A DNA stretch of 64,000 bases, from assembly GCF_026571515.1 (NCBI RefSeq), contig NW_026866967.1, positions 248,001 to 312,000 on the forward strand, written 5' to 3'. How positions within the stretch are numbered: position 1 is the first letter of the stretch; every line of letters starts with the position of its first letter. Position numbers and translations under genes: made by a program. The notes below the pieces were generated by a model, which searched no databases, had not been told where the DNA came from, and saw only the letters and a list, made by a program, of their open reading frames with translations. This document shows positions 2,491 to 63,518 of the stretch, piece after piece. This DNA comes from Ruditapes philippinarum (lineage: Eukaryota).

Positions 2491-3770
2491 TTAATGCTTT
2501 CGAGGAATAACTTTTCACCATTTAACTTTAAATATATGCATTTTACACACAGTAGTACTTTATGGCTTGTTGAAAAAACCAAGACAACGAGGGGAAAATC
2601 ATCGACAGAAATGTCACATTAGTGTCACAACTACAAACGTCACATTCTGTCACGTGATTACAGGCCTGTGTAAACAAATTGGTTGATGACTTCTCTTATC
2701 GGACATTCGCAAATTACTCCCTTAACTTAATTATATGCTTCTCGAGATACCAAAACGGTACACAAATAGTGCTTTCCTAATAATACGGAAACCTAAAGTG
2801 TGTTTTTAAAAAAGTCGCATGACAAATTACAAATTGCCATAGACAAAGTTTTTGTTTCTCGAGAAACTTAAGAATTATTTGTTTTGTATTTTGTCTTGGG
2901 CTTAAATGAAAGTGCAGCGTGTGTTGTTTAAATGAAATAATGAAGTGATGTCATTCACATTATCCATCGTTCGGTAAAATATTTCAAACGTGTATTGAAA
3001 CTTATTCAATATTTACTGTATATGTCCAATTGGATACGGGAAGCTGTATTTCATACTACTGGTCAATACAAGTGGACCTTCTCTTACAAACAACTGGCTG
3101 TTTTTTCCCTCTGTATTGCATAAAACATTCAGCTGTAACCTGGATTGCAAGAATGTTTCAACTTTCGAAAATCGAAAATGTTTTGTTTGCTGAAGTTTGA
3201 TCATGTTTGAAAATTTAAATTTTCTAATCTTAATTTTGTCGTATATATTCACATATGTGCAGGACATAAAAGTGTTACTAAAATCAACTCTTTAATGCAG
3301 TCTGGGCAAATCAATCAGTTCTTTTAATTCCTATACGCACGTACTAAGTGTTTTAGGATGCCTGTAAATTTCAAAAGATGCTATAAATCAAATCTGTAAA
3401 ATGCAAAAAAAAAAGATATTCAGTAACACTGATGTAATCATTTTAATTTGTTTATACGAGTCTTCTTAAAACCTAACTTTCACTGGAATTAGGAGAGAAA
3501 TAAGCAATCATTATACAAATCAAGGTCAATGTTTATTCTTGTCAGTATTGACAACATCATTTGGCATCCACATTCTTCACTTCAATCACACATGTTAATG
3601 AAATCATATTAAATTGAGAGAGTTTTGTAATTTCCCAGTATTTTCCAGGCGGATTCGTTTATTGTTTTATGTCTGAAGAACCGCGCGCAACATACTTACA
3701 AAAACTTAAACATACTCTTAAGCACGATAGAACGAATTGCTATGTTTTGATTGTACAAATGGCGATAATA

Positions 3771-3880
3771 GGAGTGCGTATGTAACGCCAACACATGTGT
3801 GATCGCTTAAGCGTCAACAATTGTTTCCAAGTATCAAACATTCGGGAAATTCCGCACTTCAAACGTAACAGTTGTAGACT
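3771..3880 (+). promoter_or_regulatory. Conserved upstream element 1, copy before exon A (TAACGCCAACACATGTGT core)
   Basis: Alignable with 10258-10295, 22832-22950 and 26357-26470. Lies 1.3-1.7 kb 5' of the ATG in each cassette. Regulatory role is inferred. Confidence 0.6.
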
Positions 3881-5443: not shown

Positions 5444-5948
5444 ATGGATTCCGGATTTATACTAGTCATTTTTAAACTGTTTCTAGTAACAGAAATTTGT
5501 AGTCAACATTACCATAGGGAACGGACTCAACTTTACCCCATGTCCGATAAGTGTGAAATAGATCGAACTCATTTAGGTGACCATAAGATTGATATGAGGG
5601 ACGGAACGGAGGTGCAAGGTATGAAGGTAAAGTTTAAACGTTCGTGTCATCTACGGGATGTAGATGAATACCGCGGACTGAAATATGCCGAGCTTAATCT
5701 TTCAGATAAAAAGGCAATACGATTCCTTCCGAACAGAGACCTTGTCAGGCCAAAACTTAAGAAAGATAATAAAGAAAGATTTGCAACTGAGTTTAAACCT
5801 GTTTGTCCTCAAAAACTTATTGACGAAGTTAGAAAGTCATGGAATGGAATACCTGAAATAATTCTCGAAAGGCTTGTAAAAATTGGAAAGTTTACTGCTA
5901 AACAGATAGAGGCATGCCTATGGCTGAACTTGTTTGTTCCATTTAAAG
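5444..5948 (+). CDS. Variable first coding exon A: signal peptide + N-terminal part of a neuroligin-like (type-B carboxylesterase/cholinesterase-fold) protein; partial CDS ending at a phase-1 splice donor
   Basis: Hydrophobic N-terminus MDSGFILVIFKLFLVTEICS. Family motifs V-QG…VDEYRGLKYA…RFLP…FATEFKPVCPQK…QIEACLWLNLFVP (cf. neuroligin GVPYA..RF..P, ATxxxPVCPQ, QSEDCLYLNIYVP). Similarity stops at AAAG|GTAAGA (donor at 5949). Length 505 nt = 168 codons + 1. Confidence 0.88.
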
Positions 5949-6850
5949 GTAAGACTATAAACCGTATTGTACCATTAAACCTAGAACAACATGTTTTAAT
6001 ATTTTCTATGGAGACTATTTTAGGAAAAACAACATCTTTAGTAGAGAATCCACGTATTCTGAATTTAAGACGTTTTGTCCAAGTTTTTTGGTGGTAATTT
6101 ATTCAGTGACGTAAGTTATTTGATTTACAACCAACCTCCTGTTTTCTAATCTTTAACATGTGTCATTCAATAGTGAGAGACATCTTTAAAGATCCTGTAT
6201 GTTTTGTGGTTGATATTGTTACTGTGTGTATACCACACTTGCAAAAAGTTATATATGTATATAATTATGCAAATAAAATAATTTTCAAACATCGAAGAAT
6301 ATGTAAAATGTGTACTAAAACCATGAAAAAATGTGTTACAGGATCTTTAAGAAAAGGTTTACCAGTATTTCAATGCTAACTTTATATTGAATTTTGCCAT
6401 AACCACAAACAATATACTTTTAAGAGATTTTCAAACATATTGCATAGATTTCAGGCGATTAATCAGCTAGCTATCAAGTTTGTGTAAGTTCGACGAGTTC
6501 TATTTATATCAGATAATTAGGAAAACGATTGAAACATACATTTTATACATTTTCTCTTAAACCGTCTTCAAGAAAAGGTACATTGAAGCAGCTGTCATTT
6601 ATATTTTGAGTTTTATTTTCGTTAAATGTTTTTGCATGATTGTGCAAATGTTTAGCATTGGTTTACATGAACTGTTAATTATCGGGTAACAATCAATTTA
6701 AAGATGATACAATAAGATATATATTCATCAGGCATATATAAGCTATTCAAACTGTTTTCTCTTTCACTTTTGGAAATAATAATATCTAATTAACTTCTTG
6801 TCTTGACTAGCACATCTACATCACATATTACTGAGATGTCGTTGTCAAAA

Positions 6851-7087
6851 TGAGCCACGTCACGACAAAACCAACAAAGTGCGTTTGCGACCAGCATGGA
6901 TCCGGACCAGCCTGCGCATCCGCACAGTCTGATCAGGAGCCATGCTGTTCGCTTACAAACGGTATAACAAGTAGAGAAACTGATAGCGAACAGCATGGAT
7001 CCTGATCAGTCTGCGCGGATGCGCAGTCTGGTCTGGATCCATGCTGGTCGCAAACCCACTATGTTGGTTTTGTCGTGACGCGGCTCA
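6851..7087. mobile_element. Palindromic MITE-like element (~237 bp, ~100-bp inverted arms)
   Basis: TGAGCCACGTCACGACAAAACCAACA…GCTGTTCGCT (6851-6953) is a near-perfect inverted repeat of AGCGAACAGC…TGTTGGTTTTGTCGTGACGCGGCTCA (6985-7087). GC-rich insert in AT-rich intron. Confidence 0.85.
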
Positions 7088-9733
7088 AATGTCGTTATTT
7101 TGTTAGCATACTCGTAGTTGCACGAAATATGTCTATAAAAGTTGACATAATGTCATGTTAAAGCTGCCAAATGAAACTGCCATAACCCAAATCCTGTATT
7201 TTATAGTTAATATTAAATTACATACACAAAGCTATAAACGTTTGGCATTTCTTAATTTCTATTCAGAATTGTATAGGGAATACCTGTGTCATTTGCATAA
7301 TTTTATTCTGGATCGAATGATGTATATGAATAACGAAGTATAAAATGCTTTAGTTTAATGAAAATTATCTATATCTTTTTAGTAATATGATGTTATAAAG
7401 GACTGAGCTGTTGTTGAGGTTTTAATTGCATAGCAAAATAGGACAATAAAGATTAAGCAATAACAATTAATGTTAGCGCATAGAATGGTATGCGTATAAT
7501 TCTTAATGTATTTTGCAAATATTTCTTTTTTTTTGTGCTTATGCTGATATATGTCAGAAATACAAATTTTATGATTTAGGCTTTTGGATCTCAGTTGAGT
7601 TCCTTTAACAAATAAAGTGCGATTGCCAGCATAAAGTTTTTGACTCAATAATAAGACGTTTTAGAATACAGAGCTGAATTCTGGATGCATGAAATATAAT
7701 GATATAATATTTGCTGTATATCTTAATACAATTCAAATTGAATTCATACCGGGCGATCTATATATGTTTTTAAAAAAAGCTAATAATTATATTTCATTTA
7801 ACTGGTATGCGCGTTCTCAAATGATACCTAAACCATATATTTCAAAATATTTAATTTTTGTTTTTCACTGTATTATCATTTTCTTTCTCCTATATCGCTC
7901 AAAAGTATATTAATTATGGAAACGCAACATTATAATTGTGGATTATTTTTAATAAAGAATAGCTTTTAACCCTTTAGCGATAATCGTAAAATAACTTGTA
8001 AAGAAGAGTGTAATATGTTTTTTTCCGTTTTAGAGGATAACTCCCTTAAGTATTTCTTTTTTTAATCTATAAATACAAATCGTGTTTCGTAAAAGCAATA
8101 TAAACATTTTTTTTTGAAGATCGGATCAATATGTAATTGGATTTACATGTCTAGCATATCACAAAAGAAGAGTGAATATTATCTAGCTTTTCCTGACTTT
8201 TAATCGGTTATCTATTCTCAAAATAATTGACTACACCGAATAAAGGTCTAGACACTGCAATCGTTTTACAAAATGAAACATACCCTGTTTGAATAGGTCT
8301 TATTAAACTGCTAAGAGTGTACTTCTTCAACGCCAAGTCTTATCATGTTGTCCGCATGATTAACGACCTGACGTCAGGCAAATGTATACCACATTTACAT
8401 CACTACGAGAGATTCAATTTATAGATGCATCTCCCACATTAATATCATCTGCTAGCTAAAGCTTCCAAACATCTTATAATTTACAAAGCATAATCTAATA
8501 CAAAATACAATTAATCATAATTATGTTTAATAGATTAGGGGAAAATTAAGATCTAAACGAGGAAGTGTAGGGTGATTATAATTTACTTTTAAATCAATTA
8601 ATTAAATGGATGGATTTAGTAAGATGTTTGTACACCAGCAATTAATATGTGATTAAAATCTTTGCCTGTATCAATTACTCTGCATCGACCGTCTATCAAC
8701 TAAATGAAATGATTCAAATTCTTCAAAACATTTACAATTCTTACAAATATATATAGGTAAAATAAACTTACATAAGCATGAACAACATGTTTGTTAAACA
8801 TGTAAGTGATTTACAATGATTATACACAATTACAGAATTACAGAAATGAATTAGATTGGAATAAAGCATTTTAGGAAATAAATAATTCAGCTATACAAGC
8901 AAGTATATGTTGGATTTTGAATTTATTCTGCTATAATTACGATGACCAATGATAATGGTATTTTAACGAAACGATTTCGTTACCGTAAACATTCGGATAT
9001 CCGAATAAAAGGTGGTATTCATTTTCCGTTTTATTTCTGTTACATGATTTACCAATACATTGATCACGTGGTGTAAAATCCTAACGACCCGCCTTTATAA
9101 ATAGTATATATTAACGTAATTAGCTTTCTATTTGAATAGAATATAATTATATAATAAAATTCCTTTTCTTACATGTTTCACATTTATCCAAATATGCTTT
9201 ATACAAGACACTGAAATGCGTTATAAAATCCAATTTAGTTTTAGTTATTTCTTTATACGTTATCATCCTCTAGATTTCTGTCAAAATATCTGAACTTTGA
9301 TTAGATATTTTGCTTTTCCCTTTTGTCTTAATTATTCATTAAATCTTACATATATAAAACATTTGTCAAAACTTGCGTAGGAAAGATCATTTTTACTTTA
9401 TGTCATATAAAATTCATATTTCAAGCAAAATTTGCCAGCTGCACAATTAAACGAAGTAAAACTGCCAATCAAAAACCAGTGTTCAGACAAATTAGTTTCT
9501 GATATATGTATTTATTGTCAGTTAAAATAGAAGTGTTTAGACAAAAAATTCATAACAATATCAAGGAATTTATTTGCACAAAAACACGGCTGGATAAACA
9601 AATAAATTCTGAAAAGTTATTGCAGGTACTCACCATTTTATAGGAAATATTAATGTATGGAATGTTAACATAATACTTAACTTTATTACCAAAACAAAAG
9701 AAGTGCAGTTGGCTTATTATTAATAGATGGAGA

Positions 9734-9734
<1 letters not shown>

Positions 9735-9766
<32 letters not shown>

Positions 9767-9780
9767 GTTGTTGTTGTTGT
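9735..9780. repeat. (TTA)n/(TTG)n compound microsatellite
   Basis: Direct reading. Confidence 0.9.
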
Positions 9781-9830
9781 AAGGATATTTCAAACTTAAT
9801 TTTTTTTAGTTCACCTGGTTTGTAAAAAAA

Positions 9831-9919
9831 TGCACTGTAACACCGCACTTTGGGGTCAAACGCACTTTGAGGTCGGACCCCATAGTGCGTTTGACCCCAA
9901 AGTGCGGTGTTACATTGCA
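9831..9919. mobile_element. Short fold-back (hairpin) element, MITE-like
   Basis: TGCACTGTAACACCGCACTTTGGGGTCAAACGCACT / AGTGCGTTTGACCCCAAAGTGCGGTGTTACATTGCA inverted arms of ~36 bp with 1 mismatch. Confidence 0.7.
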
Positions 9920-10257
9920 CTTCACATGCTCTAAGACAATCTGTTGTTTTTTTTTATTTTTAATGAAGTTTGGGTGACATCATTATCTAGAAATATATTA
10001 ATTTGGTTGATGTGTTAATGAATCTTCACATACTTTACAATATATGAGTGCCATCTATGTAAAAACTGTATCAACGTAACGGCCATTACAATTGTACTAC
10101 CTGAGATTTATTCACTTATTTTTTAAGCCTGTTTGATATAATGGATTATAGGTCAAACGTAAAAAAAGAGATTTACAAAAGTACAGCCAAATCCAACTTA
10201 ACAACCAATAAAATTCCTGTTTTTATTGTACGGATGGTGATAATCTTATTGCGGTGG

Positions 10258-10295
10258 TAACGCCAACACATGTGTTATCGCTTAACCCATCAACG
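10258..10295 (+). promoter_or_regulatory. Conserved upstream element 1, copy before exon B
   Basis: TAACGCCAACACATGTGTTATCGCTTAA vs TAACGCCAACACATGTGTGATCGCTTAA at 3783 (27/28 identical). Confidence 0.6.
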
Positions 10296-11545
10296 GTTGT
10301 TTTATATGTCTAACAATATGACCGAACATAAGTAATATCTTCAAGACAATGCCTTTATCTTGTAGGTATTGCTTTTCTAGTAGGGAAAAAATGTCAATAG
10401 TCTTAAGAGTCTCATTCGGGATGTTTCGGGATCTTCTAGCAGAAAAAAAGACCAACACACATTTCAACAGCTTAAAGCCTTTAATGCTAAGAAGATAGGA
10501 AGTACAAAACTTAGAAAAGCCAGGAGCGAGTTCGGGAAAATTACCATCGGAATAATACTGATATTTTTCCTCGTGACGTTTTTGTCTTCTTAATAAATCA
10601 AACTGTGCAATTACTCGGATAGATTAGTTTTATGTAATTAACCGAAAGCGAAATCTTTTTTAATGACTGGTAGAGCAAACGTGTCGACATACAATGATTC
10701 CTCTAAGCTGTTAGATATAACAGATAGACACATGCATATTGAATGAAATGGAAATTGCATTCAAATTCATTATAGGAAGTTCTATTGTATCGATTCGTAA
10801 GTTTATCTTTATAAGATCGTTGCACTAATAACGTAACATTTCCACGAAATAAAGAGAGTGATAAAATGAAGAACCATTCCATTATGAGGGATAATCTATC
10901 GGGCTAGTTTTTGCTCTCAAACACCGAGAAGTTTCGCAATTGTCAGGGTAATTAACGAGATATAAGATTGACCAAGAAGAGCTTTATCACAAATATTACT
11001 GCAAGAAATTCACTCGCGTTTACATCGTTACTGGCAGTAGGATTAGATTGAAGTGATAACGGCTACCATTACATGGATACTGGAATTTTGTATTAAAGCA
11101 GATATGCAATGAGGGAATATAGCGTGATAAAATTCGCTTAATTGTGTAAAGGAAATAGTAAAGCCGGAAAAGATAGGAAGATAAAAAATGGCTTACATCT
11201 TTTCCTAAATTGAGGTATCGAAATTTTGACGATCGTATAAAAAATAGTGAAAATGTGTTATTTCAGTGATATATTTCATTTTGGCATACTTTATATGAAA
11301 ATTATGATAGTATCTTTGTTTAAGATTAAATAACATGATACATTTAATCAATAAACTACATTCAAGAAAAAAAGTTTTAACGACTTTTGCCTTTAAAGGG
11401 AGAATTTTTTATTTGGTACGATACGGTTTGTTGATTTTTGAAAAAGCGGTGGCAAAATATAAGAAAAGTAATGTTTTCTCAAAGCTGATTGCTTGGTACA
11501 TTTTACAATATTCGCCATAAATTTTTCATATATTGGCGTGCAGAC

Positions 11546-12050
11546 ATGGGCACTCAATTTATTGTATCAATTGTATTTACTTTGATAATTGAAATACAGA
11601 GTCAATATTACAAAAATGGTCAAACGCAATTTTATTCCAAGCTTTCCGGTTATTGTAAATTAGACAGAACTTATTTAGGGGATCGGAAAATTGATATGCG
11701 AGATGGAACGGAAGTTCAAGGAATGAAAGTGAAATTCAAGCCTTCATGTGGGCTACGGGATGTTGACGAGTACCGTGGACTTAAATACGCAGAACTGAAT
11801 ATTGCTGATAAGCACAGTTTGCGATTTTTACCTAATAGAGACCGAGGGCGACCTACTTCAGACAAACATAGTAGAATACAATTTGCCACAGAATATAAAT
11901 CGGTCTGCCCACAAAAACCGATGGAAGACGTTTTAAAATCATTGAAAGGAATGCCTGAAAAAATATTGGAAAAAATGGTCGAAATTGGTAAATTTACCGG
12001 GAAACAAATTGAAGGATGTCTTTGGTTAAATTTGTTTGTACCTTATATAG
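11546..12050 (+). CDS. Variable first coding exon B, neuroligin-like N-terminus (partial CDS, phase-1 donor)
   Basis: ATG at 11546, in frame with the listed ORF 11489, which starts at TTG. Signal peptide MGTQFIVSIVFTLIIEIQS. Motifs VDEYRGLKYA, LRFLP, FATEYKSVCPQK, QIEGCLWLNLFVP. Ends ATAG|GTAAGG (donor at 12051). 505 nt, same length as exon A. Confidence 0.88.
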
Positions 12051-16842: not shown

Positions 16843-17323
16843 ATGCATATGTCAAATGTTTTTGGTTTTACTGTCGGATTTCTAGTGCTGTTTGAATCAG
16901 AGTTTCTAAAGACATCATCAGAACCTTTCGGTAGGGTAGATGACAATGACAAGTGTAAGCTTAAAAGAAAACTATTAGGTGATCATAAGATAACAATGCT
17001 TGATGGAACCATCCTTAAAGGAATAAAGGTCGAGTTCAGGCCAATTTGTAGTCTAAAAAATGTTAATGAGTTTCGGGGTCTTCCATACGCAGAGATCGCC
17101 AAGTCAAGGTTCATTTCGCCAAGAGATCCAGGGAGATCTCATACGAAAGTAAGACATGCTATAAATCACAAAACAGTTTGCCCGCAGAAAACTTTGGCAG
17201 AATATTTGAACACGAAGAATGAGTTACCATTAGCAATTCGTGAAAAGTATTTTAAAATAGGAAAATATATCGGTGATCAAAGTGAAGAGTGCCTTTATCT
17301 TAACATATTCGTGCCCTACAAAG
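16843..17323 (+). CDS. Variable first coding exon C, neuroligin-like N-terminus (partial CDS, phase-1 donor)
   Basis: MHMSNVFGFTVGFLVLF hydrophobic leader (start could be the ATG at 16849). Motifs VNEFRGLPYA, SRFISP, VCPQK, QSEECLYLNIFVP, the closest match to the canonical QSEDCLYLNIYVP. Ends AAAG|GTAAGT (consensus donor at 17324). 481 nt. Confidence 0.9.
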
Positions 17324-20300: not shown

Positions 20301-22831
20301 GTACTGAAATGAACATTACTCTTCTTGATTTCTTGACGAATTAGATATATGAAATATATAATTAACTACAGTTGCATAATTATGTTAAAATAAATTATGT
20401 AGTGTCAATCAAGGCAAAAACGCATTCAACTGGCAATGACATTCATTTAAAAACCTAGTCAGAACACATCAATAACACGTGAGAAAAGAGAAACATTTGA
20501 GATAAATCGTCGTAAACGTCAAACTGTTTTTACAGAGGCATTAAGTGCATTTGTAACTTCTTCTTCGTAGACATAGACATATAGGAAAAACATGATGAAT
20601 GTCATATTTGACAAGGCAAGTATGCATTGCAAAATTCTAAGAAGCTCTATTATTCTGTAATGCTTATGTATTTGGGTCAAGATTTGTGCATATGTGCAGA
20701 TGAGTTTACAGATATCTCTCGAAATGTAACACTATTTAAGGTTTTTACTAAGTTTTGTTTAAAGATATACTATTAAGCTTAAATTTGTTTTTAGAAAATA
20801 TTGTTAATTACTACTCAGTGTCTTTGTAAAAATAAAATAATCAAGTTCTGACTTCATATAAAGAAGATACATTGTATGTTATGTTTAAAGTTCTAAACAC
20901 TATAGGTGGTCACATTTTGAATATATAGTGTCATTAAAAAAAGGAAATTCTTTAAGAAAAGAGCAACTTTACTTGGCTTGTAATAAGGATCGCAGCATCC
21001 AATAGATAGATTATACATTTGTTTATTTAAACTGGACATAATCATTAAGAACTTCATTGATTTCAATAAATTATTTTTTTCCTTAAGGATGAGCTTAGTA
21101 TATCTTTAGAATAATTACACTTTCAAATGTTTTAAACAAAAAAGGTTATTTGACAAATATTTGTGGTATATGTGTATTATAATTTCAAAACAAATAAAAA
21201 AACATAATCAACCATTTATCTAGTGTTTGTAAGGATTACATTCAGCTATTATACCAAATTAGCTAAAATAGTAATATAAATGTATAATAGTATGCTATTA
21301 AAGTTTATCAATATTTACAACTTTCTGAAAAGTTTGCATAGGATATTTTTTTATAGAATATTGCATTCAATATGAATGCCACCGAACATTTTTTGACAAA
21401 TAAAAGGAAAAAGGACACTGAAAATAAGATGTTGTTTTCCTTACATTGATGTCTTTATAACAAACAGCTGCTACATCAGGCTTTTGCATACTGAAAAAGC
21501 GAACGATTGCCCTTGCATAAATATTTATCCAAATATATGCCATTCTGACACAAGTCTTTTTCCCTGAACAATCAATAAAGCATTCAGTTGTATCACTTTT
21601 ATGAGAAAGAAACATTATTGCCTCAGCTTTGAAAAATCCCATCTAGATTCATTTGCGCTTTATATCATACATGCTACGTTTCATCGATGGTCTCCCAGGA
21701 CTTCTGTAACTTATTTTCGATCTTAAACAGCGATGAAAACCCGTCCTACAAACACATTATCAAGGAGATCATGGTCTATTCAGTGGTTTTCATACAGTTT
21801 TGATCAAATGACTTAAATATGCCGGTATATAAGATTGAAGCGATAAGTTTTCTAATTATTTATTTTTTATGTAAACTAAGTAAGAAGATTTGTAGCAACG
21901 ATCTAAAATGTTCAGAATCATTCAAAAGTATAAGTATACATATGACATACCGAGCTTTTAGTTAACCATAAGCATATTAGTCCGTCTTGTTTATGTCAAT
22001 AAAATTAATTAATCGGTTGATCAAAACTTTTGATATTGTGTATTTCATATAAATGTAACAATTCAAATTAAAATCGATTAGTTAATAAGTATGAACATAA
22101 AGCCGTAGACAATTATTATTTTGCCATTCAGATTTTGCAATGTTTAGATTTATTTTTTTTTTTTTTGATTTATCTGTACAAACTAACAACGGCAGACACA
22201 AAAGAGAAACAGAACAAGTGGGTAAAATAGGCAAAACGTTAAAAGTATTTACCTAAACTTAAGTTGAAATAGACATTAGTACAATGTGTGTGAAGAAAAA
22301 GTCAACTGCTTTAATAAGAGAGGAAAAACTTTCCTTGAACATCACAACGATGTGCCGTTCTTGGAAAATCGTGGTTTGCATGTGTCTGCCGCTCATCTCA
22401 AACACGGATATTTAAGACCAATTTAAATAACGACCATATATTATCTTACGAAACTGATTCATTCCTTGAGTTAGACCCGAGAGATGAAATCAAAAGACTT
22501 TTTGTGACATTCGTGCTGAAAAATCAATGCTTTGAAAAGTAAAATGAACGTAAAATGCAATTAGTTAATATATCTGCTTAATTGAAGCAGTCTTGGGTTA
22601 GTTTCATTCTTTTTTACTCCAAATAAAAGTAAAGTCCATCTCAATAATATTCACTGTTATAAAACAAAAACAAAAAAAAACGTATGCATATAATTATACT
22701 TTGCATGCTGCAAAATACTACAATCTAGGTCTAAATCGACATAGCAAAAACATAATGTAAAGCATATAATTTCACAAAATATAAACTGGAGCAATATATG
22801 TTCAGAGTTTAATGTTGCGATTGTTTTTATT

Positions 22832-22950
22832 GCGATAATAGGAATGTGAATATAACGCCAACTAACGTGTAATAACTTTAGCATCAACAACTATTTCCAA
22901 ATATCAAGGAGTTGGCAAACATCCCACTTTAGGAATAACAGTTGCAGATT
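22832..22950 (+). promoter_or_regulatory. Conserved upstream element 1, copy before exon D
   Basis: GCGATAATAGGAATGTGAATATAACGCCAAC…CATCAACAACTATTTCCAAATATCAA…TAACAGTTGCAGA aligns with 3771-3880. Confidence 0.55.
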
Positions 22951-24312: not shown

Positions 24313-24820
24313 ATGGCTAACATATCTTTTATAGTTATACTCGTTATAATATCGATTTTCAAAACTCACAGTCATTATTACCAGGAAAGTCAAAATCAGT
24401 ATAAAGGGACAGAAATCGATGTTTGTGAATTGGATAGAACTTTTCTTAGTGGCAAAAAAGTTGCTATGATTGATGGTATTAAGGTTCAGGGGTTAAAGGT
24501 TAAGTTTAAACCTATTTGTGCCCTTAAAGAAGTGGATGAGTATCGAGGAATACAATACGCCGACCTTACTAGCTATCATATGAAGAGTCTACGATTTTTA
24601 CCAAACAGACAACGTGGAAAATCTGTAACAAATACTATAAACAATGAACGATTCGCCACACAACATAAACCAGTGTGTCCCCAAATGTTTATGGATGAGG
24701 TTATTAAGTTCCATAAAGGTCTGCCTGAAGAACTACGTGCCAAGTTGTCTAAACTTGGAAATTTTACGAAAAAGCAAACTGACGGGTGCCTTTGGCTAAA
24801 TCTTGTTGTTCCCGAAAAAG
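24313..24820 (+). CDS. Variable first coding exon D, neuroligin-like N-terminus (partial CDS, phase-1 donor)
   Basis: ATG at 24313. Signal peptide MANISFIVILVIISIFKTHS. Motifs VDEYRGIQYA, LRFLP, FATQHKPVCPQ, QTDGCLWLNLVVP. Ends AAAG|GTAAGG (donor at 24821). 508 nt. Confidence 0.88.
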
Positions 24821-25910: not shown

Positions 25911-26356
25911 TGGTTTTAAATACATTTGGCTCGAAGAAGCGTCAAATGATGTAGAGACTTGTTGCTCTCTATAAATGAAACAATTAAGTCAAGCGCATAA
26001 TTTCTTGAAATATTAATCAAACATATTGGCTACACAGAGCAACTAAAAAACTATAAAATCGCTCCTATTTGGTCAATACGGATTTTAGATGCACAATAGA
26101 GGTAATAAACCCATTTCTAAAAAAAATAATCAAGACAGGGGTGTCGGCATTATTGTAATTAGTAATGTTCGTACTCAAACAATGGAAAGTTATGCTAAGG
26201 AATTTTCAACATAACGTTCTAGGTAATTTACAAGTATTTTGTATTGTCGATCCATTTGTTGTTTCATGTCGACGGAATAGCGAGTACTAAAATGTGAAAT
26301 GCTTTAACAAGTGTGCTTGAGGATTATAGTGTTTTGATTGTATTTATGGTGCTGTT

Positions 26357-26470
26357 TGGAGTACACATATAACGCAAACACATGTGTTATCACTTAAGTC
26401 TCTGACAATTGTTTCCAAATATCTTGCAGCTCGGAAGTAACTTTTAACTTACTTGTAACAGTTGCAGATA
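26357..26470 (+). promoter_or_regulatory. Conserved upstream element 1, copy before exon E
   Basis: TAACGCAAACACATGTGTTATCACTTAA…ACAATTGTTTCCAAATATC…GTAACAGTTGCAGA aligns with the A and D copies. Confidence 0.6.
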
Positions 26471-27940: not shown

Positions 27941-28417
27941 ATGGATGCGCCGTTAATTTTAATCATAATACAACTTCTTTTTGTTATTGAAATCACAAGT
28001 CAATATTATAAAGAAACTTCAAACCAATATGGCCCTAAAACGTCTGTGTGTGAGCTGGAAAAAAAGCGTCTTGGTGACCGAAAAATTATCATGATTGACG
28101 GTACTGAGATTCAGGGAATTAAAATACAATTTAAACAAATTTGTAATCTTAGAGATGTTTATGAATTTCGAGGACTTCCGTATGCTGAGATAGGACTGTC
28201 AGGTTTTTGTCACCACGTGACCAAGGACGGTCTACGTCAAGTGTGAGACACGCTATAAATCATAAAGCAGTTTGTCCCCAAAAAGTCATGAAGGATTTCT
28301 TAAGAAGACTTGAAGGAATTCCAACTGAGCTACATGAGCGTTTATCTCGAATTGGCACATTTATAGGAGATCAAAACGAAGAATGTTTATTTATCAATAT
28401 TTTCGTACCCTATAAAG
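27941..28417 (+). CDS. Variable first coding exon E, neuroligin-like N-terminus, carrying a 1-nt frameshift at ~28201 (sequencing error or pseudo-exon)
   Basis: The two listed ORFs (27941-28246 and 28207-28467) join into a full paralog of exon C if one A is restored at 28201 (TCA GGT TTT TGT -> TCA AGG TTT TTG = S-R-F-L; exon C reads TCA AGG TTC ATT). Signal peptide, GLPYAEI, VCPQK and QNEECLFINIFVPYK are present. Donor AAAG|GTAGGT at 28418. Confidence 0.85.
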
Positions 28418-31400
28418 GTAGGTCCATAGCAGCTTATTACCCAAACAAACTTTCCGCTATCTGTTAATTTACTTTGTATCTCTTCTATTTCATATCAGTC
28501 TATTTAAAATTGTGTATCATGTTTAATAACATATAAAGTGTCTACGATTAAACAGAGTTGATGTCTTCAAGAAATTGCAAATCTATCTCTAAAACAATTC
28601 GTGTGTCAAACTTTCTTTTTATTTTTGTTTATTGAGCAAATCGTTATTGATCAGTAAAGTCTTATTTCTATACATTTCTGCATAGATTAATCGACTTGAT
28701 AATCTTTCTTTTAAAGAGTTTTGAATTTGAAGATGCACTTATTGCAATATTCCAAAAGTGTCGTATCGTAATCGATTCGTTGTTAAAACACGAGTTGGCA
28801 TTTAGAAGTATGAGGCTTGATTGTTATATAACAATCATCGTTAAATGTTTGCTTTTGTTTACGAGCATAATCGAATCCACAACTTCATGGAATTTTTAGG
28901 CTTTACATTAGGGAAATAGTCCATTACGATTTTAGAAAACTCTTCCACAATTTGTTTTGACATGTCTGTTATGATAACATCTAAAAGACAAAAGAGATTA
29001 TACTTTGTTATTGTATAGAGACGAAACCGGTAAGAACGAGCACTGCCAAGTATAATGTATATAACTATGTTATGTCTAAATCATGTAAATTTCGACATAG
29101 TTTGAAACAATGATGAGATATGTTTGACATATAGGTCGTATATTGACTTTAAGTACGAATATCACTAATAGACCGCCTTTGTTTTACTACTTTTTAGTCA
29201 AAGAACGTAACATAGAACATTGGAGAAAAATTTACAATATTTATATGGCAATATGTGTTTTTGTTTATGTCTCGGACCTTCTGGAAGGAAAAATGTCTGC
29301 CTATAGAAATCAACAATTACTCTTATTTAAATCATTAGTTATTGTATGTATATAAGTATCTGTACGTATGAAGAATGTAGAAACATTTACGGCAACTTAA
29401 AAGTTAAAAAGATTGACTTAAAAGTATTGTTGTGATATCATTCGTTGTTGCTTTTGAGTTATTTGTACATTTAAGTTAAAGTTTAATTAGAAAATTTGAA
29501 GTGAATAGCATTGTGTCTGTGAAAAATATTGATAAGGTATGTACATATACATTAAACGAAAGAAATACTTTTGAGTCATTATTAAAGATTGATATTGCTG
29601 TCCTGCATTTTGAACAGTATCTGTTTTAAAAGTGTTATATTGCATTGTTTATAGTTTTACAAAGTGATTTCATACCAAACCTTATCCAAAACGTCTGCAG
29701 TGGCAATATTTGATTGCAATTCGCTTCTTTTTTTTTAATTCCAAACTTCCGTTAATATTAATATACAGCCATGGATTCAAGTTAAATGCCTTACGAGATG
29801 TGTGTTCATAATTCTTAATGAAGTTTATTCAATGTGATGGGTGTATTTAAGTAGACGTGTAAATGTTTTCACTAATTGTACATCTAGCAAGGACTTCTAT
29901 ATGTAGACAAGACGCCTTGAAAAAAGAGCATTTAATGAGGAAAGAAGTGATGTTATTCCCTCAGTGTGAACGCCTTATCCGTGTTCCATTTATTTTTAAT
30001 TAAACGTAAATATCTAAATATCTAAAATGGGTGAGATAAAATTTATTCCACAAACATAAAAATGTATTTTAAAGCATAACATATCGAATAATGTGTTTTT
30101 ATGAGATGCTGTTTAACAAAAATTCTGATAAAAATAACATAAATAATAACATATCGACGATTAGTTCTATTTCTCTAAATATTTGATTTCACTTCAATGA
30201 AACTGTGAATAGTTTTATATTTATGACCATGTTCATCTTCATTTTACCTGTTTAATAACGCTTGTCAGTGTAAGTAACACATTTAAGCGTTTAAATTACG
30301 TTTAAACTTGCCACTTCAGTTGGTGCATAGTTGTAATAAGTTTCCAAGGTGTTCTGAGTTACTATAGCGAATCCCGCCATCAAATCAATGTACATTATTA
30401 CGACCTTATCCCAGAAAGTCGGAACAATGCTTTGATAATTATTCTATCTCGATACATTTTCTTTACAAAGTTTAATTAAAAGCAATGCGTTTATTTACAA
30501 GAGGTATTCATATAACTTTTAACGATTTGTTGTGAAATGTATGAAGAAAGAAAATCAAATAAAATTTTACAACAACAACAATAGTTATTTTTAAAAAATG
30601 GTGCTTTATCATATGTTTATAATAAAGCAATAAAATTACACAAATTATCATTTTGGAACTATGCCCTTTTTGAACTGTGCAAAATCTTTATTTCTATATA
30701 AATTTAATCAATTAATCTGTCGGTTAACAACTATAGCAAATGATTTTTCTAAAAAAATATCATTTAAAGACATAAGTTTTGGACAACATGATGAATCGCT
30801 ATCAATGTCATATTGTTAAACACTAGCAGTAAGTGCATATGAATAGCGGTACGGAAAGAAATAAGACATTAATGTTCTGAGAAACATGCTTACTGTCAGT
30901 TATTACAGGAAAAATATGCATAGTAGAAATTCCTTGAGGTCCTGAGCTTTTTTTTATATGAGTTTGATTGATGATGGTCATGAAACATAAAATGCACACT
31001 GTTGTATACTACATAGTGAAGTTAGTTTATCAGTACATAGTTCCACGAATATAATTGAATTTCTTTCCGAAATAAATAGTATTATTAGTATAAAAATTAT
31101 TAAAGACAATTATTTATTAAACAGATGAAAGCTTACAAAGAAGATAAAGTCAGGTGAAAAAAATAAGATTAAATTAAATATAAAAGGGAAACTGCCAACA
31201 CTGTTCAGTTGTGATTTATATATATATATTAAACTTTATTTCAATGGGTATAAATAAATTAAGTTTTTATCAACACAAATGTTAAAACATTTTTTCTGTT
31301 TGAAGTGATTAGAAGCCTTGTTGTGAATGGCGTTTTTACCAAAATAGCTCTATATGTTGAATTGATCCAAATCAACAAAATGAATGCTTGTCATAAAAGC

Positions 31401-32140
31401 AGTCATCCCTTACTGTAAACTAATAACTAAAAACAGTTTTCCTGTCTTAATGCGATATAGAAGATTACACATTTACTTAGCTAAAACAATCTCATGTGCT
31501 AAGTACTAAGTGTTATAAATAAAACCCTCAATACGATGCTTTATAACCAGTCATAGTACATTGTTTTAAAGGTAAATAAATCAACTAAAAAGACATTGAT
31601 TGCACACTATTGACTGATTCTGTCTACAAGGAAAATATCAGATTCTTTTCACTTGTAAGTGGCATTTCTCCTTTGTGTCTGGAAAATAAAAAATACATTC
31701 GACTTTAGATATTCCTAAAGGATTAAAACTCATGAAGTCGCCTTGTTCTTTTTTTTTTTTGAATATTCATGAGATGTCTTTTGTGCGTTGTAATATCCCC
31801 ATTGAAGAGATGATCAGTTTTTTCTGGATATCAAAGGGATATTCTTTCCAAGTCAATAAATGTTATTTAATTTGTACAAAACAACTTTTTTTGCAAAGCT
31901 ATGATATTGAATAAAACTATAAAACAATTTATGCAAAACATTTATATAAATAGTGCCGACTTCGATTTAAAAAAAACCCATTTGTGCAATATGCCCTCTA
32001 GTTTACTACGCGACGTGAACAGTGGGCGGAATGATTCTTTGGGTTATTGTGGACTTTAGGTTATTTAAATATTAAAAAAAAATATTATAAAGATGCGACA
32101 GCGTAAGAATATATAGATATAAATATAAATTGTGATTATT

Positions 32141-32315
32141 CGGAAGCATTAATGACAACAAAATTACATGAAAATTTCAGATTCGGTTCGATTGAGTCTG
32201 TAAAGAGCAACATTCCTTACGCCCACTAGCACCGGCTTGAGCGCTACTCAATTTTCAATACTTACAAGTGTTGGAATTTATGATTCCGAAGGACCAAATA
32301 AATGTAACAACACAG
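32141..32315 (-). repeat. Dispersed ~170-bp repeat, copy 2 (inverted)
   Basis: CTAGCACCGGCTTGAGC at 32226-32242 is the reverse complement of the core. Flanks (GGACCA, CTTACAAGTG, GAGTCTGTA) also align. Confidence 0.75.
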
Positions 32316-35300
32316 TCAACCTAGCGTGTAGAACATTGCACTTGCTCGTTGATTAGACAAAAATTGAGGCAGAACTTCCAAAGTCTTAAATAAATCAAAA
32401 CTAAATTGTAATGGTTCCATCGAAACGTCATTAAATTTGAAATTATATTTTATTGTAAGAATATTATGTATCAGATAATATTTATCTCGATAAAATTCAA
32501 AGCATACAGTCTATTATTTTAGAATTTATTGACTTAAGAAATTTATAATCAACATTTTTGACTCATTTATTATACTCAATCCTTCTTTTCATGAGTTATA
32601 CAATGAGGTTTCATAATTTGGTTTTACCTATCACTTTGTACAATTCCATATGTAAATATATGTGTATATTTCTTAGTTTGCAGCATACATGTTTCATATA
32701 ATTTTATTAAATAAAATATCATTTCACTCAGTGTTGATAAGTGTCATTAAGAAAAAGAAGGAACAAAAAACTTGAAAAATGCCCCGATGTATCCCCTTAA
32801 ATTTTCTTCAGTTAGATTTATTATTATAGTTAGAGTTTGCACGATAACTGTACTTGAACAATGACATGGGTCACTGTTTAGTCTTTAATTCTGCTTAACG
32901 ATCGTGAAAACTTATTATATAAGGTTCTTAGAAATATTTAGAATCGCAAAATCAATTTCGTTTTAATCTGATCAATTTTAAACAGGTTTGCTGAGAACAA
33001 TAAATCTGTTCCCAGTCGTCATCATTTGAAACAGTCTGCTATGACCCGAGGCAGTGGAATCTACTCTGTTGTTAAGGGAAATAGAATCTAGTTTTTATTC
33101 TATCTGATTCCGATGACGGTCTGCTATTTTATCCTAATAATTGCCATCATGGGAAATTGAGAAAGTTCGTTTTCGGCCTATGGGTATCTTCGCTTTGATG
33201 TTAAGTTTCAGAACTTGATAATTGGTCAATTCTTCAAAATGATGCATTTATTTAAATAAGGTTTCGTTAATGACGACTTCTTCGTTGCCAAAAGATCAAT
33301 TACTTGATCCATATTTTTTGTTATTATTGCTAGGGATTTGAATTGTCATGAAAAAGTACAAATCGCTCAATTTTTCATAGAAGAAACTAAGATTGTAGAT
33401 GTTCATTTGTCACGATAAAGAAAGTCAATCATTTTTTGGTCAGTTATCAATACACTATCATTTAAAACTAAACTTAACCATTTAGAAAACGGGAACTGGA
33501 TACGTTGTTTCCCCCTGATTTAAGCGGCTTCTTGTTATGTATAATTTGCATATAATTTTATATTGTACAAGCTTAAATAATATAGTGCATCTGAGATATT
33601 TAAAACAGTAAAAGCAAAGTATATCAAATGTTGCTTGTTTGTGCAAATTTCATAAATCCTTGTCGGATATATTCTTATTTAACAGACAGACTTCTTTTGC
33701 TGCTATACAACGTATTGATTTGTTGTCAATATGAATAACTCAATAAGAGATTATTATATCTACAAATTTTAATGTTTTCAGATAAATGTTCCGAATATTG
33801 TAGTGGTTTTGAGATAACAACAGCGTATTCAATTCGAAAACAAGCATAAATAGATAACATAATAACTAGTCTTCGTGATAAGTTAAAAGCAATAACTCTA
33901 TATAGATATCAATTTATGTTTTGAATAATAATATAGCGCAAGATGGTTTACAGTCTGTCTGTATCACGTGGGTGTAGTTATATAATTGATATGTGTAAGT
34001 TATGTGTGTTGTCATTTTCCAAATATGATACCATCTCATTTTTTCTTCTTTGATTCAACTGTCTCTTTTTGATACTGTTATTGCTTTCTCTTTTTCCTTC
34101 CCAAAACGCTTTAGCATTCTCTTGTTAGGAATATCTATAACATTAGCAGTAAAATTATAATTGTTGCCCGCACCATATGCTGTATCTGATTTTGAATCAC
34201 TATGAACTTAATGAAGTGACATGATATTGTATGAGTTGTCTTACAAGTATAATGTATATGGTGCCTTTCTCTAGGATATTATCGGCCAGTGCCTATGCAT
34301 TTAAATATTCTCGGGTAAACATGTTTGACTTTGGTCGTCATGGGCTCCTTGCCGCTGGCACTTGTTGCTGGATCGTGTGGGGGTTGCGTCCATTGAACGC
34401 TGCCTTTCCTTGTTGATATTGTTTATCATATTCTTTTACTACAAGGGAATGCATGTATATCAATGCATCATGTGCTTAAATAAGCTGTTGAAGTTTTCAA
34501 TATATGATAAAGAGATGATTTATAATGAAATATGTGACAACATTATATGTATATTTTGATTCTGATGTATAACAGTAAAAGAATAAAAGTTATCAGAAAT
34601 TACAAAATTACAGACAGACCTGCGTTGCCTATCAGATATGTTTTAGTCAATTTTGGATTCCTATATCTTTAGGTTTTATATCCTGACAAATATGCATTTG
34701 TAAAAAGGCATATGAGATAACGTAATGGCCATTTTTTTCCTGACCAGGCACAATAGAGCCGAGTATGTAATCTGCATATTATTATATTTGGTATTTGCTC
34801 TTTCCAAGAATATTTTATACGAATGCGCTCAGTTGCTTTTGAAATGTGGGACACGGCTTTCATTTACCTATCTTTCATTCTGACACACTAATTACACCAG
34901 CTGACCATTACTGTACTTAGGATTCTGCCATATAGCTTATAATCTGGAGTTTTAAACATTAAAATGGAAAACACCCTTGAGTATCACTAATCAACAAAGT
35001 AACAGACAAATTTGTAACCGTGGATCACTGAACCGTTATCTTGTTTCTTCAAGATCTATGAGAAATGAATGTTCTAAATCCCTTAAGGTACATTGATTGA
35101 TAACCTATCACTTCTGGAGGGTTTGGCTGCTTAAACTATCAAGTGTTCAATCATTCTAATTGCTAGTCTGTCCAGAACATTCGAATGTGTATTATTCATA
35201 TCATTATATGAATTTTCTTCTTCTCCGACGCTTGGAGTAATCCTGTTATTAAAATGAATTGAATGGATGTTTGTACGTTTTTGATTTCAACACAGCCATT

Positions 35301-36751
35301 CACAAATACATTCATTTATTCGTAGCTGTCAAATGATTCCGACATAATTGATTTTTTTCCGAATTCATCATCTCTTTTGTTTTGTTTTGTTTCTTTTTAC
35401 GTTTCGTTTCTACTAGGAACATTTAATTTGAGTGTGAAATGGTTTCACGTTTCTCAAATCTGTCGGCAGGATTTATAACCACAGAAGGAAAAGTCTCTTA
35501 ATATTTAAAGTTTATATTCCTTCCTCTGATCTTTCTTAATGCGATAAAGGGGAATCAAACAATAATTTTGAGACGACGAAAGTCAATTCAGTCATATAAA
35601 GGGTTGAAACAATGTGATTATTTCAAAGAACAAACATAGCCTCGTTACTTCATACATTTTGGCAATGTATTCAGTTGTTTGGTTGTAAACTATATATATA
35701 TAGTCTGACTGCAGAATCTGTAGGTGGCTAGGAGTAGCTGTTCATAAAAACGATAATTTGCCAGCCCTTATATACTTAAATAAATCTGTACAGAATACCA
35801 ACAAAATAGCAATGAAGGTAAACTTATGAGAGTGTTTCAATCTGTTGGAATTAGGCTAATGTGTTTTTTATAAAGGGTTCTTTGTATTTATTACTCCCGT
35901 TTACTTTTCCTAATAATTTGTGAAGTGAACAAGATAATGGTCTTTACAGTCATGCTCCATAACCAGCAAATGTGCTTTAGTACAAATAAATATGATGTAT
36001 TCAACAGATGGTTGATTATCATAAAGTCTAAGCTTTTTTTCATACCTTTAATTTTAATTTCTGCTATTTCATTACCTGTTCAAGTGTGTGTTAGATTTTC
36101 GTATCACTATATAATGCGAACAAATATACTAAAAGCCTAGATTTACCAACGTCGAATTTAAGAATTTAAGATATTCATTGCTATTCCGTCAGTTAATTTC
36201 TCTGAAGACGGTTAACCCAGAATCTTTGATTGAGCCAAATATATTTTTTACTTTTAATGAGACGAAACCGATATGATGGACTGAGTCCTTAGTAATGTTT
36301 TCAAGCATGATATAAAAATTTACAGGAAACCTATTGACCGTTTAATCGTACTTGCTAATCAATCCCATCCTTCATTTGAACTTGGCTGACTCCACATTAT
36401 CGTATGTTTTTCATCATGATACCTACTTGGTTTTTTAACATGTTTAGGACACTTAATGAGTTTGATTACTGGTTGTCACTAATACCCTGCAACAACACTA
36501 TTACTCGTCATTACTTTATAAATATTCTCAAGAGTAAGACTACATTATTTGCAATTGTACATTCCCTATGCGACAATTTCGTTATTTTAATTCTTTGTCA
36601 TTTGTTATACCTATAACCCATTTGCCAATAAAAAATGTCATTTTAAATCCGCCTGGAAGAATCATGTTTCCTTTTCTACGGAAGCTTATCAGGTCCTCCA
36701 CTTATCTAAAAGTTTCACGCCATGTCAACTTGTTTCTACTCGTTTTGACCA

Positions 36752-36834
36752 AAAACATTCCATGAAGACATTATGATTAATACGAAATACATAAAACATT
36801 CCATGAAGACGTTATGATAAATACGTATTACGTA
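36752..36834. repeat. Local tandem duplication (2 x ~41 bp)
   Basis: AAAACATTCCATGAAGAC(A/G)TTATGAT(T/A)AATACG repeated. Confidence 0.8.
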
Positions 36835-37859
36835 GAAGTTTTTAATTAATTCAATAAAACTTTGTTGAATTACGTGAGCTATTTGTCAATGCAAGTAACT
36901 TCCGTACTTTTCTTATTTTTAAAAAATAATTTGTGCATCTCAATAAGTTTAATTATTTGTAAACTGTTTATATCCTCTGTCCTACTAGGTTACGTGTCTG
37001 TGGTGTTGTGTTGCTGGACTTGTGGTGTTGTCGCTTGCTTTCGTTGAATGTCGTCCTCTCTTGTTAATTGCTGTTCTCTCATTTTGACATCGCTGTCTTC
37101 TTTCCGTGCAAAGTTGTATTAAAATAAATACAATATATGTCAAGTGCGGAGTTTGTTTTTATCATAATATTATGTTTTGTCTATTCTTTGGGCATGCTGT
37201 ATAGATTTGACCAAAAAAAATGTTACAATTCCTTTTGTTATGTATCTGACCTATTGTGTTCGAGACCTTGCTCCCTGAATTGTCTCGCAATCAAACCCAG
37301 TATGTTGTTGTTGTTTGTTCACGTGTAGGCATTTGATTCAATTGTTCTCGAGGTTTCTTACCTAACATAACCTAACCCATATTTCTTGATACGAAATTGA
37401 ATACTATCTACAATAATGAATCAAGAATTTCATTCATGTTCGTTTGTTTATTCACGCATCGAATTATCTATCAAGTCATGAAAATGGATATATGTTAGTT
37501 TGGTGAAAATGTATGATTGTTATCAGCCCAATTACTGTGCAATGCTGCCAAGAATAAACACAAAATAATTTGATTCAATTTGGCATGCTTCAAACAAAAA
37601 AGTATCAAGATTCGAAACATTTCCAAAACAAATATTTATCTTTGACATTTTTCAAACGTATTGTAAAAGAAAACTTAATGTAGTTCAATACACTTATTTA
37701 GAAATAGAAGAGAACTTTTCAAATTGTAATAATATATTGTGGACAATGTTAACAAATACTTGCTAAGTTTCTGGCATGTTCTATTAAAATAAATCTATTG
37801 CTGGATCAATTAATAAATAATGCCATGTTTTAATCAAATATCTAAATATTCATCAATCA

Positions 37860-38230
37860 AGACTTTTTATTGCTTCCATTCGTAATTAAGTCGTTATTTT
37901 TCTTCAATCGACAAATATCCTGTTATCATTGATTGGATTTAAAAGAAGTAGATAACGAGTGTGATTAAGGTTTTTATATTGGTTGTACAGATTCGTCAAT
38001 TGATAACGATTCACATTATTGCTAAAATAAAGGTAATTGTCCTTAATGGAAACTAGTTTTGAGGATATTGAACAAAAAAGAACATGATGTAGCTTAGAAA
38101 TTAATAATCATTCCAGGAAATCATTGGGCGCATTTGTCATTTCCAAAGCGATGTTGTATAAACAACGTTTAATGAATTATGTCCTATTATTTTAAATCAG
38201 CATAACTGTGACTTAAGTATGAGGCTGTAT
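37860..38230 (+). repeat. Downstream-array block Y, copy 1
   Basis: ATCGACAAATATCCTGTTATCATTGATTGGATTT…TAACGAGTG also at 47690-47890 and, more diverged, at 51470-51820. Confidence 0.7.
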
Positions 38231-38804
38231 CTCACGAATATTGCTAAAGTCATGTTGACTATGTACAATTAAATGTAAGATTGTAAAACTTAATTGTCCT
38301 TACCTTTTTTCTATGATAAATCTTTTATTGTTTGAATTTATTCCCTAATCAATCATTATTGTATGTACGATGTTGGTCATACGTGAATACATATAAATGA
38401 CTTTTGAAAAACCAGTGTAAATAAGTTTTGTTTTAGAAAAATCTATTTTATTTTATTTATTAACTTAATGTTTTCAATTATTTATTACCATAACAAAACA
38501 TTAAGATGCCATTGACATTTAAACAACATTGTTTCAGAAAATAAAATCAGTGTTTATCTAGTTCACAAGACAAACTGTTCTATATATCTTGACGAGAAAA
38601 TTTGGTAAATATACACATTTCTCATTAAATCTTTCTTGTTAACACTTTAAGAACAGAATTGATACAATGCATTCGGCGTTAAAATTTTAAAGTACATTAT
38701 TTTGAATTGTCCTTATGTTTGTGTTCCCGTTAGAATATTCTTTTCATTACAAAACATCGCTGTCGTGGTAATAAATTATTGTAGACTAAGTGAAGATATG
38801 TCGA

Positions 38805-38990
38805 CGATTACCCGTTAACAAACAAATTGTCCCTGTAGTCTTTTTTGAGTGCCAAAGCTATCTGTTACTTCATCGGAACCTGGTTATTTTCAGCTTTTGT
38901 ACCGGGAATTAGGTTTTACAGTTGAGTGATAAATGAATCAAAATGTCCGCAATGTAGATTCCTTCACACGCATAGGCAGTATTTCTGCCA
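38805..38990 (+). repeat. Downstream-array block Z, copy 1
   Basis: CCCGTTAACAAAC…GTCCCTGTAGTC…GAGTGCCAAAGCTATCTGTTACTTC…GGAACCTGGTTATTTTCA…ATGAATCAAAATGTCCGC. Copies at 42632, 48692, 53362 and weakly 61690. Confidence 0.8.
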
Positions 38991-41764: not shown

Positions 41765-41950
41765 GCTGATTGTAGAGAGTATTATCTGATGTATATGAAA
41801 TTCGAATTTAACGAATTTCCCACGATTCTTATGGGAAATACATAACAATTGAATTGTTTTAATGCGAAATACTTCTCTCGTTCTCTTGCAAAACTACCAT
41901 TAATAAAGGAAAAGTGATAAAATAGTTCCCGTGATTACATATGGATTATA
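41765..41950 (+). repeat. Downstream-array block V, copy 1
   Basis: ATTTAACGAATTTCCCACGATTCTTATGGGAAAT…AATTGAAT…TCTCTTGCAAAA aligns with 61215-61420. Confidence 0.65.
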
Positions 41951-42631
41951 CATGGCTTTTCTTTCTGTGTAAATTGTATTTCATTTATACAATTACCTTG
42001 TGTTATTTTGCATTGTAAACAAATGGTTAAATGAGATGAACGAAAAAAATGTTTCTAAATAATGGTATTTTCGCGGGAAGATTTAATTTCATCGCACAAT
42101 TACGTGTATTAAAAGGTAGTTAAAATGATCTCTTGAGTTTGAATATATTACTGACATTAAATTGCTTTTCTAAAGTGATTTTATTACTATTTAATTATTT
42201 CAATCATTTTTTTAATCTATTTTTGTCTAATTTAAGGTGAACCATTTTCTAACAATGCGGAAGAATACGAGATAAATTTGAAAACCTTGCAATGCATGCG
42301 TGCGTGCTTTGGGAAACTAATATTATATGTAATGATAATTATGGCTGATTGTTTGTCAGTGTAATTTAATCGTTTTTGTTTACTATCTTTGATACATTAT
42401 CATTAAGCATCGATGAATTTAAAAATGAAGATAAATTGGAATCATTTGTTGTAAGGTCTGAAGTTGGCTGCATTGATTTGTAAATGGATTATCAAAAACG
42501 TTGCACTGTTATAAATCAAGGAACTTAAGTACTGTGAACAATAGTTTAATTTCGTTTTTATGTTGAAATAAGCAACAATGATTTCTTTGAATATTGCTTA
42601 AAAAAAAAGTCAGTATTCACTCCGTGTACAT

Positions 42632-58833: not shown

Positions 58834-58949
58834 TTAAAACTATTAAACTTTAAATTGTGTATGAGTTTCAACTTTTTTTCCCGCATCCGTTTCGTACACA
58901 GCATTATTTTCAAACAGCTCAAATCAAACACTTGAAACACACGCCTTAG

Positions 58950-63516: not shown

Positions 63517-63518
<2 letters not shown>

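Follow-up and report, generated by a model that had tools for sequence, protein, structure and literature searches.

Tandemly duplicated first coding exons that probably share one neuroligin body in the clam Ruditapes philippinarum

A stretch of 64,000 nucleotides of the Ruditapes philippinarum genome (the window; G000:C15454:248,001-312,000, in an assembly fragmented into 15,874 contigs) carries five homologous exons in tandem, A to E, and raises the question of what such cassettes encode and why they are kept. The original prediction, made from the sequence alone, saw in them orphan first exons that are maintained by strong purifying selection and must be spliced to something shared. The analysis assigns a probability of about 0.88 to the reading that A to E, conserved coding exons of a single clam neuroligin gene, are tandem duplicates joined singly to a shared body, each likely being a first exon with its own promoter. 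Their supposed orphan status is not borne out, as the shared body lies on the same contig, outside the window. Purifying selection on working exons is ordinary; the gene layout behind them is less so.

Probable joining of the cassettes to a neuroligin body

Five copies of the variable N-terminal segment, or head, are recovered in the window by translated search. Each of A to E opens with an ATG and a hydrophobic leader (judged by eye on the sequence), goes on to encode the initial ~150 residues of a cholinesterase-like domain and closes with a G|GT donor in phase 1. The Pfam COesterase match of each cassette covers only positions ~11-94 of 515, scores under the curated cut-off except in C and leaves the 5′ piece of E unmatched; COesterase is the sole family matched consistently by the cassettes, and cadherin or Ig domains are not among their consistent matches. 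A neuroligin body is found at G000:C15454:374,890-382,624 (window-relative start 126,890), 63 kb past the window end and 98-121 kb from the donors of E to A. Its first acceptor, TTTTCAG|AA, combines with the G of the donor to encode the E of EWNETEKLPV, and the phases match.

The Ruditapes philippinarum record cluster holds seven isoforms with six distinct heads and one identical body. Two isoforms carry a sixth first exon, F (contig C15454 ~359.2-359.8 kb), and the remaining ones open with sequence identical to the translated cassettes D, A, B and C and to that of the 3′ part of E, which bears out the expected splicing to something shared. Tandem homologous 5′ cassettes upstream of a single set of constant exons are present, and the joining of one cassette per isoform to the first constant exon is found both in the annotated records and in the phase match. 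Alternative automatic models of this kind generally rest on transcript reads. The isoforms are already in the automatic annotation, and what is new is the recognition of the layout rather than the sequences.

Indirect evidence on the joining comes from four public sequencing runs over window positions 5300-25000, three presumed to be RNA and a fourth, evenly covering run of unknown type; the contig-end results come from the 32 of 65,650 pieces listed. A contig of an RNA-like run ends at donor A with 25 unplaced letters, two contigs from different studies end at donor D with 26 extra letters and one ends at donor B with 0, and the even-cover run crosses donors A, B and C and stops short of that of D. 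With 31-letter words, a merging path retains 31 minus (shared suffix + 1) letters, so that the suffix TAAAG common to A, E and the second donor of F predicts 25 letters and the AAAG shared by D predicts 26. The overhangs at A and D fit exactly, and suggest that several exons merge on one downstream sequence.

The body appears to be unique. Among 61 genome matches of its largest exon, the only close one is the exon itself (100%); the next best stands at ~30% identity, and the 60 others are weak and resemble ordinary carboxylesterases. No second copy of the body or additional head is found in contig C15454 from 168 to 432 kb. Genome-wide, dozens of carboxylesterase genes keep their entire domain in one long exon, many of them in tandem pairs or clusters. 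The genome search yields eight heads: A to E, F, and two on the minus strand of another contig (G000:C10569:63,276-63,719 and 230,553-231,000), where no close body is found. Counterparts of both C10569 heads share one body in Mercenaria and Mya isoforms, and the gene may span more than 600 kb across a contig break between C10569 and C15454.

By the features tested, namely ectodomain, missing serine, leader, stalk, span and tail, the clam protein is a neuroligin. All 14 solved-structure matches of the full A isoform at E<=1e-60 are neuroligins, and a fold search ranks neuroligins above acetylcholinesterase; the structure model itself is rough (mean pLDDT 67, residues 186-202 below 50, rmsd ~12 to neuroligins). 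Active esterases carry GxSxG at the nucleophile position. The shared body has GHGHGAA at 262, aligned with neuroligin GSGAGAS and with glycine in place of the serine, and the product is predicted from these residues not to be an active type-B carboxylesterase, as the serine of the Ser-Glu-His triad is missing. A proline-rich stalk and one membrane span follow (model helix 728-767 aligns with the neuroligin membrane span), and the tail ends in NNAITIV, which we take to be a C-terminal PDZ-type end.

The joint between variable and constant parts, VPFK|EWNE, aligns with VPTED|DIRD, and the neuroligin-3 site-A insert splits the alignment exactly there (query 170-175), which puts the joint at splice site A of vertebrate neuroligins. 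In exon F, two donors lie six bases from each other (L009:1821-1830, contig ~359.76 kb) and give isoforms that end in VPKR and VPKRGK, and this micro-variation sits at the site A position. The contact residues of NLGN with neurexin and MDGA run from H291 to R450 (PMC5563082); as they lie after site A, the residues of neurexin-binding sites I and II would belong to the constant body. In rat, NLGN2 residues 52-180 transplanted into NLGN3 confer inhibitory-synapse function, which site A alone does not (PMC5098909), and a basic site-A insert increases heparan-sulphate binding (PMC7486126). The clam heads are net basic (32 K+R vs 22 D+E in A), and A to D carry an additional cysteine pair (37 and 68 in A).

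Selection, promoters and alternative readings

The original count over 38 aligned codons of A and B is exact, with 15 identical codons, 21 synonymous and 2 amino-acid changes (CGT/CCT, R/P; CAT/GGG, H/G) among 26 nucleotide differences in all, and the translations of both 114-nt blocks agree with it. Within the block pS is 0.87 and pN 0.04 (Nei-Gojobori), and 26 random changes scattered on it give a mean of 17.4 amino-acid changes and a minimum of 10, with two or fewer in 0 of 20,000 trials. The purifying selection inferred from the block holds, its strength being overstated there, as this is the best-conserved part of the exon. Over the whole exons of A and B (167 aligned codons) pS is 0.74, pN 0.21 (95% interval of pN/pS 0.21-0.38) and dN/dS ~0.07; outside the block dN/dS is 0.15, and the remaining A-D pairs give 0.17-0.29, with A-C saturated. 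The predicted ratio well below 1 is recovered in paralogue pairs over whole exons (~0.07-0.29), with dS at or near saturation making the values rough and leaving the direction firm. The elevation anticipated in the loops finds no support, pN exceeding pS in 0 of 13 sliding windows, a scan of low power at saturation.

The cassettes are under purifying selection and are not dead gene fragments. A and B differ at 60 amino acids against a random mean of 100 and minimum of 84 (5,000 trials), and 99.8% of the randomised whole-exon versions gain a stop codon. The frames of A to D are open and their donors intact, each G|GTAAG, as originally described; the same claim of intactness fails for E, which is frameshifted by one base in the present assembly. 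Common disruption of orthologous cassettes finds no support, open ones being found for A, B, C, D and E: an alignment of A to E retrieves 11 proteins, to which a profile search adds more, and among these P0269, P0268, P0271 and P0270 match A, B, C and D at 76, 71, 78 and 65% identity and P0277 matches the two pieces of E at 77% and 86%. All five records, which may come from more than one species, are open through the donor, P0271 without a leader. Tree support for the grouping of A to D with their own orthologues is 100/100, 89/95, 100/100 and 100/100, E standing outside the tree. B also matches the full-length 927-residue Mercenaria neuroligin isoform P0003 at ~75-76% identity, its sole match among longer proteins, and P0003 belongs to a cluster of four isoforms with four different heads and one body; the ectodomain body is 88% identical between the two clams, vs 76% for the B head.

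Comparison of the 3 kb upstream of the ATGs shows that homology between cassettes stays collinear as far as 1.3-2.3 kb from the start. It peaks in a ~93-bp block located 1.2-1.7 kb ahead of A, B, D and E (E-values down to 2e-17), and the downstream introns have only short chance matches in common. Identity among the four copies of this element ranges from 56/93 to 74/94 (60-79%), in contrast to 4/21 to 12/35 (19-36%) at four-fold sites of the exons, a difference biased upward as the element was chosen as the best match. A dispersed repeat is an unlikely source of the element, since two genome searches, whose counts are lower bounds, gave copies in this array only. A different upstream block is common to C and E (14770-15008 vs 25647-25887). 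RNA-like contigs extend unspliced along the genome for 0.7-1.3 kb upstream of the B and D ATGs; before D, the cover reaches up to 1.3 kb in two abutting pieces and starts at 23,034, just past the element, a hint of a promoter from contigs that cannot fix a start. Each cassette likely has its own promoter.

The mechanism proposed on this basis is that promoter choice would pick the head and that the cap-proximal donor would be joined by splicing to the first constant exon over a distance of 98-121 kb. This would yield a catalytically dead type-I membrane neuroligin that varies in its first ~150 mature residues, with the predicted neurexin-binding face, the dimer helices, the membrane span and the tail the same in every isoform. 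The most speculative part, for which the odds are about even, is that the heads tune synapse type or an extra partner, one gene doing so vs the four or five paralogues of vertebrates and insects.

Several points weigh against this reading. A profile search finds no 93-bp element ahead of C, F or either C10569 head, and no transcription start is mapped. The isoform records stem from automatic annotation and their support by reads is not visible, no splice junction is read directly, the overhangs are known by length only, and the 24 of 1,843 loose-end rows listed consist of repeats throughout. The RNA nature of the runs is a guess, intron sequence is also covered at depth 1-9, and one RNA-like contig crosses the donor of C. 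The dN/dS ratios are computed between paralogues only. The two further heads lie on a separate contig, their adjacency being deduced only from Mercenaria and Mya isoforms, and conservation is incomplete among the clam residues that align with the neurexin-binding stretch. Any function or neural expression of the heads is putative.

Some of these points would also suit a different arrangement, in which the cassettes are internal mutually exclusive exons, as in Dscam1, behind one shared upstream promoter and a non-coding leader exon. Protein records are blind to 5′ untranslated exons, start sites are unmapped, and the element, missing before C and F, might act on splicing instead of transcription. 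This arrangement is nevertheless improbable, as every cassette has its own ATG and leader, the RNA-like contigs run upstream of the B and D ATGs, and the homology lies upstream and not in the downstream introns, as expected for a duplicated promoter-plus-exon unit.

Less probable still is that the cassettes mainly yield short secreted proteins by read-through of the donor, or start separate genes whose bodies are lost from the assembly. All frames extend 8-49 codons beyond the donors before a stop, and both the contig crossing the donor of C and the fragmented assembly would agree with such an outcome. Conservation among orthologues, however, ends at the donor, the head forms part of one fold, the stretch between the cassettes is continuous and holds no body copy, and records with many heads and one body occur in related species too.

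The frameshift of E, near 28200 with a first-frame stop at 28244, bears on the equally remote notion that the array consists of decaying duplicates, once selected or kept alike by gene conversion and now in part dying, which the averaging of paralogue dN/dS over a long past would also permit, against which stand the saturated synonymous sites, which exclude recent gene conversion (between A and B, pS in the block rules it out), the open one-to-one orthologues, and the differences from other individuals in exons A and B, which comprise 6 synonymous, 2 missense and 0 stop changes (8 among the 41 of 531 differences listed). The E isoform record P0133 starts from a methionine further downstream and so has no signal peptide, the orthologue P0277 is open across the broken place, and two scans of metagenome contigs found no other alleles of E; the frameshift reflects an error of the assembly or else a null allele.

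Known systems and spread across molluscs

As a tandemly duplicated set of first exons joined singly to one body, the clam gene combines a familiar protein with a layout known from other families. Vertebrate NLGN1-4, insect Nlg1-4 and Aplysia neuroligin likewise have a cholinesterase-like ectodomain without the catalytic serine, a proline-rich stalk, one span and a tail with a hydrophobic last residue. Known neuroligin diversity stems from gene paralogues and from short insertions at sites A and B (PMC3229692, PMC5563082), whereas the clam gene swaps the whole segment from signal peptide to site A, and its A-E heads carry an N-terminal extension with an extra cysteine pair. A review gives just one neuroligin for Aplysia, and diversity by way of paralogues for insects and vertebrates (PMC3229692). 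A single Aplysia gene suggests little diversity in molluscs, and the bivalve arrays reveal a hidden one.

Variable-first-exon clusters are known at the protocadherin, UGT1 and GCNT2 loci (PMC1885805, PMC10084454). In clustered protocadherins and UGT1A, tandem homologous first exons are joined singly to common constant exons, as in the clam array, and protocadherin-type clusters resemble it further in the lineage-specific birth and death of cassettes (PMC1885805) and in the conserved sequence upstream of most of them. The protocadherin variable exon encodes a whole ectodomain and membrane span (PMC10084454), whereas the clam exon encodes about a quarter of one folded domain, and protocadherins, an unrelated protein family, have ~50 cassettes against 8 in the clam array. 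The chelicerate sDscam genes have tandem 5′ cassettes with alternative promoters, the cassettes being duplicated with their promoters (PMC4835542). They resemble the clam gene as invertebrate cell-surface molecules in which one of several tandem 5′ cassettes supplies the N-terminus. They differ in that their cassettes comprise two or four exons coding for complete Ig domains, those of this mollusc being single exons and cholinesterase-like. The clam array works like the protocadherin, UGT1A and sDscam loci and is a member of none of those families. No published description of this layout in a neuroligin was found in a literature search that covered subscription journals poorly, and supplements of genome papers might mention it.

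Counts of distinct heads in other species, taken from records grouped by identical body start, are lower bounds (at most 15 members per cluster, 21 chosen clusters). Among clams, Ruditapes has at least 6 heads, Mercenaria at least 4 (4 isoforms) and Mya at least 4 (5 isoforms); among scallops, Argopecten has at least 2 and Mizuhopecten at least 3. Two Crassostrea virginica genes have at least 4 and at least 5, Saccostrea at least 4, 4 and 5, and Ostrea at least 5, and four Mytilus species have at least 3-5 and Sinanodonta at least 2. Potamilus heads were left out of the per-gene counts, as their locus tags differ. Haliotis and Patella have at least 2 each, and Octopus, Biomphalaria and Lingula at least 1, from two records each. 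Oysters possess two neuroligin genes with separate arrays of 4-5 heads apiece (records P0021-P0046, P0152-P0155, P0216-P0219), and unionid mussels seem to have several tandem neuroligin genes too.

In a quick tree of 82 heads, from which heads of 100 residues or fewer were left out and whose deep forks remain open, A to D cluster with one head from Mya and two from Mercenaria in a single clade (SH-aLRT 100). Orthologues from both of these clams are present for F and for one C10569 head, and the other C10569 head groups loosely with single heads of octopus, snails and other phyla. This grouping suggests that the A-E set is a clam-lineage expansion inside an older array. A neuroligin gene of the protocadherin or UGT1A style appears to have been kept and re-expanded across clams, oysters, mussels and scallops.

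The variable unit corresponds to a segment of mammalian neuroligin whose effect, unlike its partner, is known (PMC5098909), and dozens of natural heads on constant bodies could help find that partner. A wider proposal, tentative and rather doubtful, is that molluscs, and bivalves above all, evolved a third clustered 5′-cassette system for neuronal surface codes besides protocadherins and sDscam, in which neurons would pick among 4-8 neuroligin heads by promoter and the swapped segment would be the one that sets inhibitory-synapse function in mammalian neuroligin-2. If true, the array would be a natural domain-swap experiment on synapse specificity.

Features and repeats of the window

The cassettes, the four copies of the upstream element and the 38-codon blocks are listed in Table 1.

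Table 1. Cassette exons, upstream elements and related features, in window coordinates
Feature	Position	Strand	Details
Conserved non-coding element before A, candidate promoter element	3743..3835	+	~1.6 kb upstream of A
Variable first coding exon A	5444..5948	+	168 codons + 1 base; signal peptide and N-terminal cholinesterase-like segment; donor GTAAGA; head of record P0128
38-codon block in A	5585..5698	+	translation, codon recount
Conserved upstream element of B	10218..10310	+	sequence comparison
Variable first coding exon B	11546..12050	+	donor GTAAGG; head of record P0134
38-codon block in B	11687..11800	+	translation, codon recount
Variable first coding exon C	16843..17323	+	donor GTAAGT; shorter hydrophobic leader; head of record P0131
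Conserved upstream element of D	22813..22905	+	sequence comparison
Variable first coding exon D	24313..24820	+	donor GTAAGG; head of record P0009
Conserved upstream element of E	26330..26423	+	sequence comparison
Variable first exon E	27941..28417	+	donor GTAGGT (G|GTAGG); frameshifted; head (3′ part) of truncated record P0133
Intron leaving the window	28418..64000	+	follows donor E

Several repeats are interspersed with these features. The intron after A holds a palindromic, very high-copy repeat with inverted ends at window 6860-7090, which is MITE-like, and a dispersed repeat has two related copies at 2350-2470 and 54140-54290. Similar repeat families occur at 38810-38960, 42640-42770 and 53370-53500, and also at 37860-37950 and 47720-47790. 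An inverted-repeat element lies at 44440-44570 (arms ~44443-44480 and 44530-44560), and short palindromes are present elsewhere at 9830-9915 and 56160-56220. Outside the window, an 857-codon open frame on contig C15454 at ~419.4-422.0 kb (L020-L021), 37 kb after the neuroligin body, is probably a retroelement.

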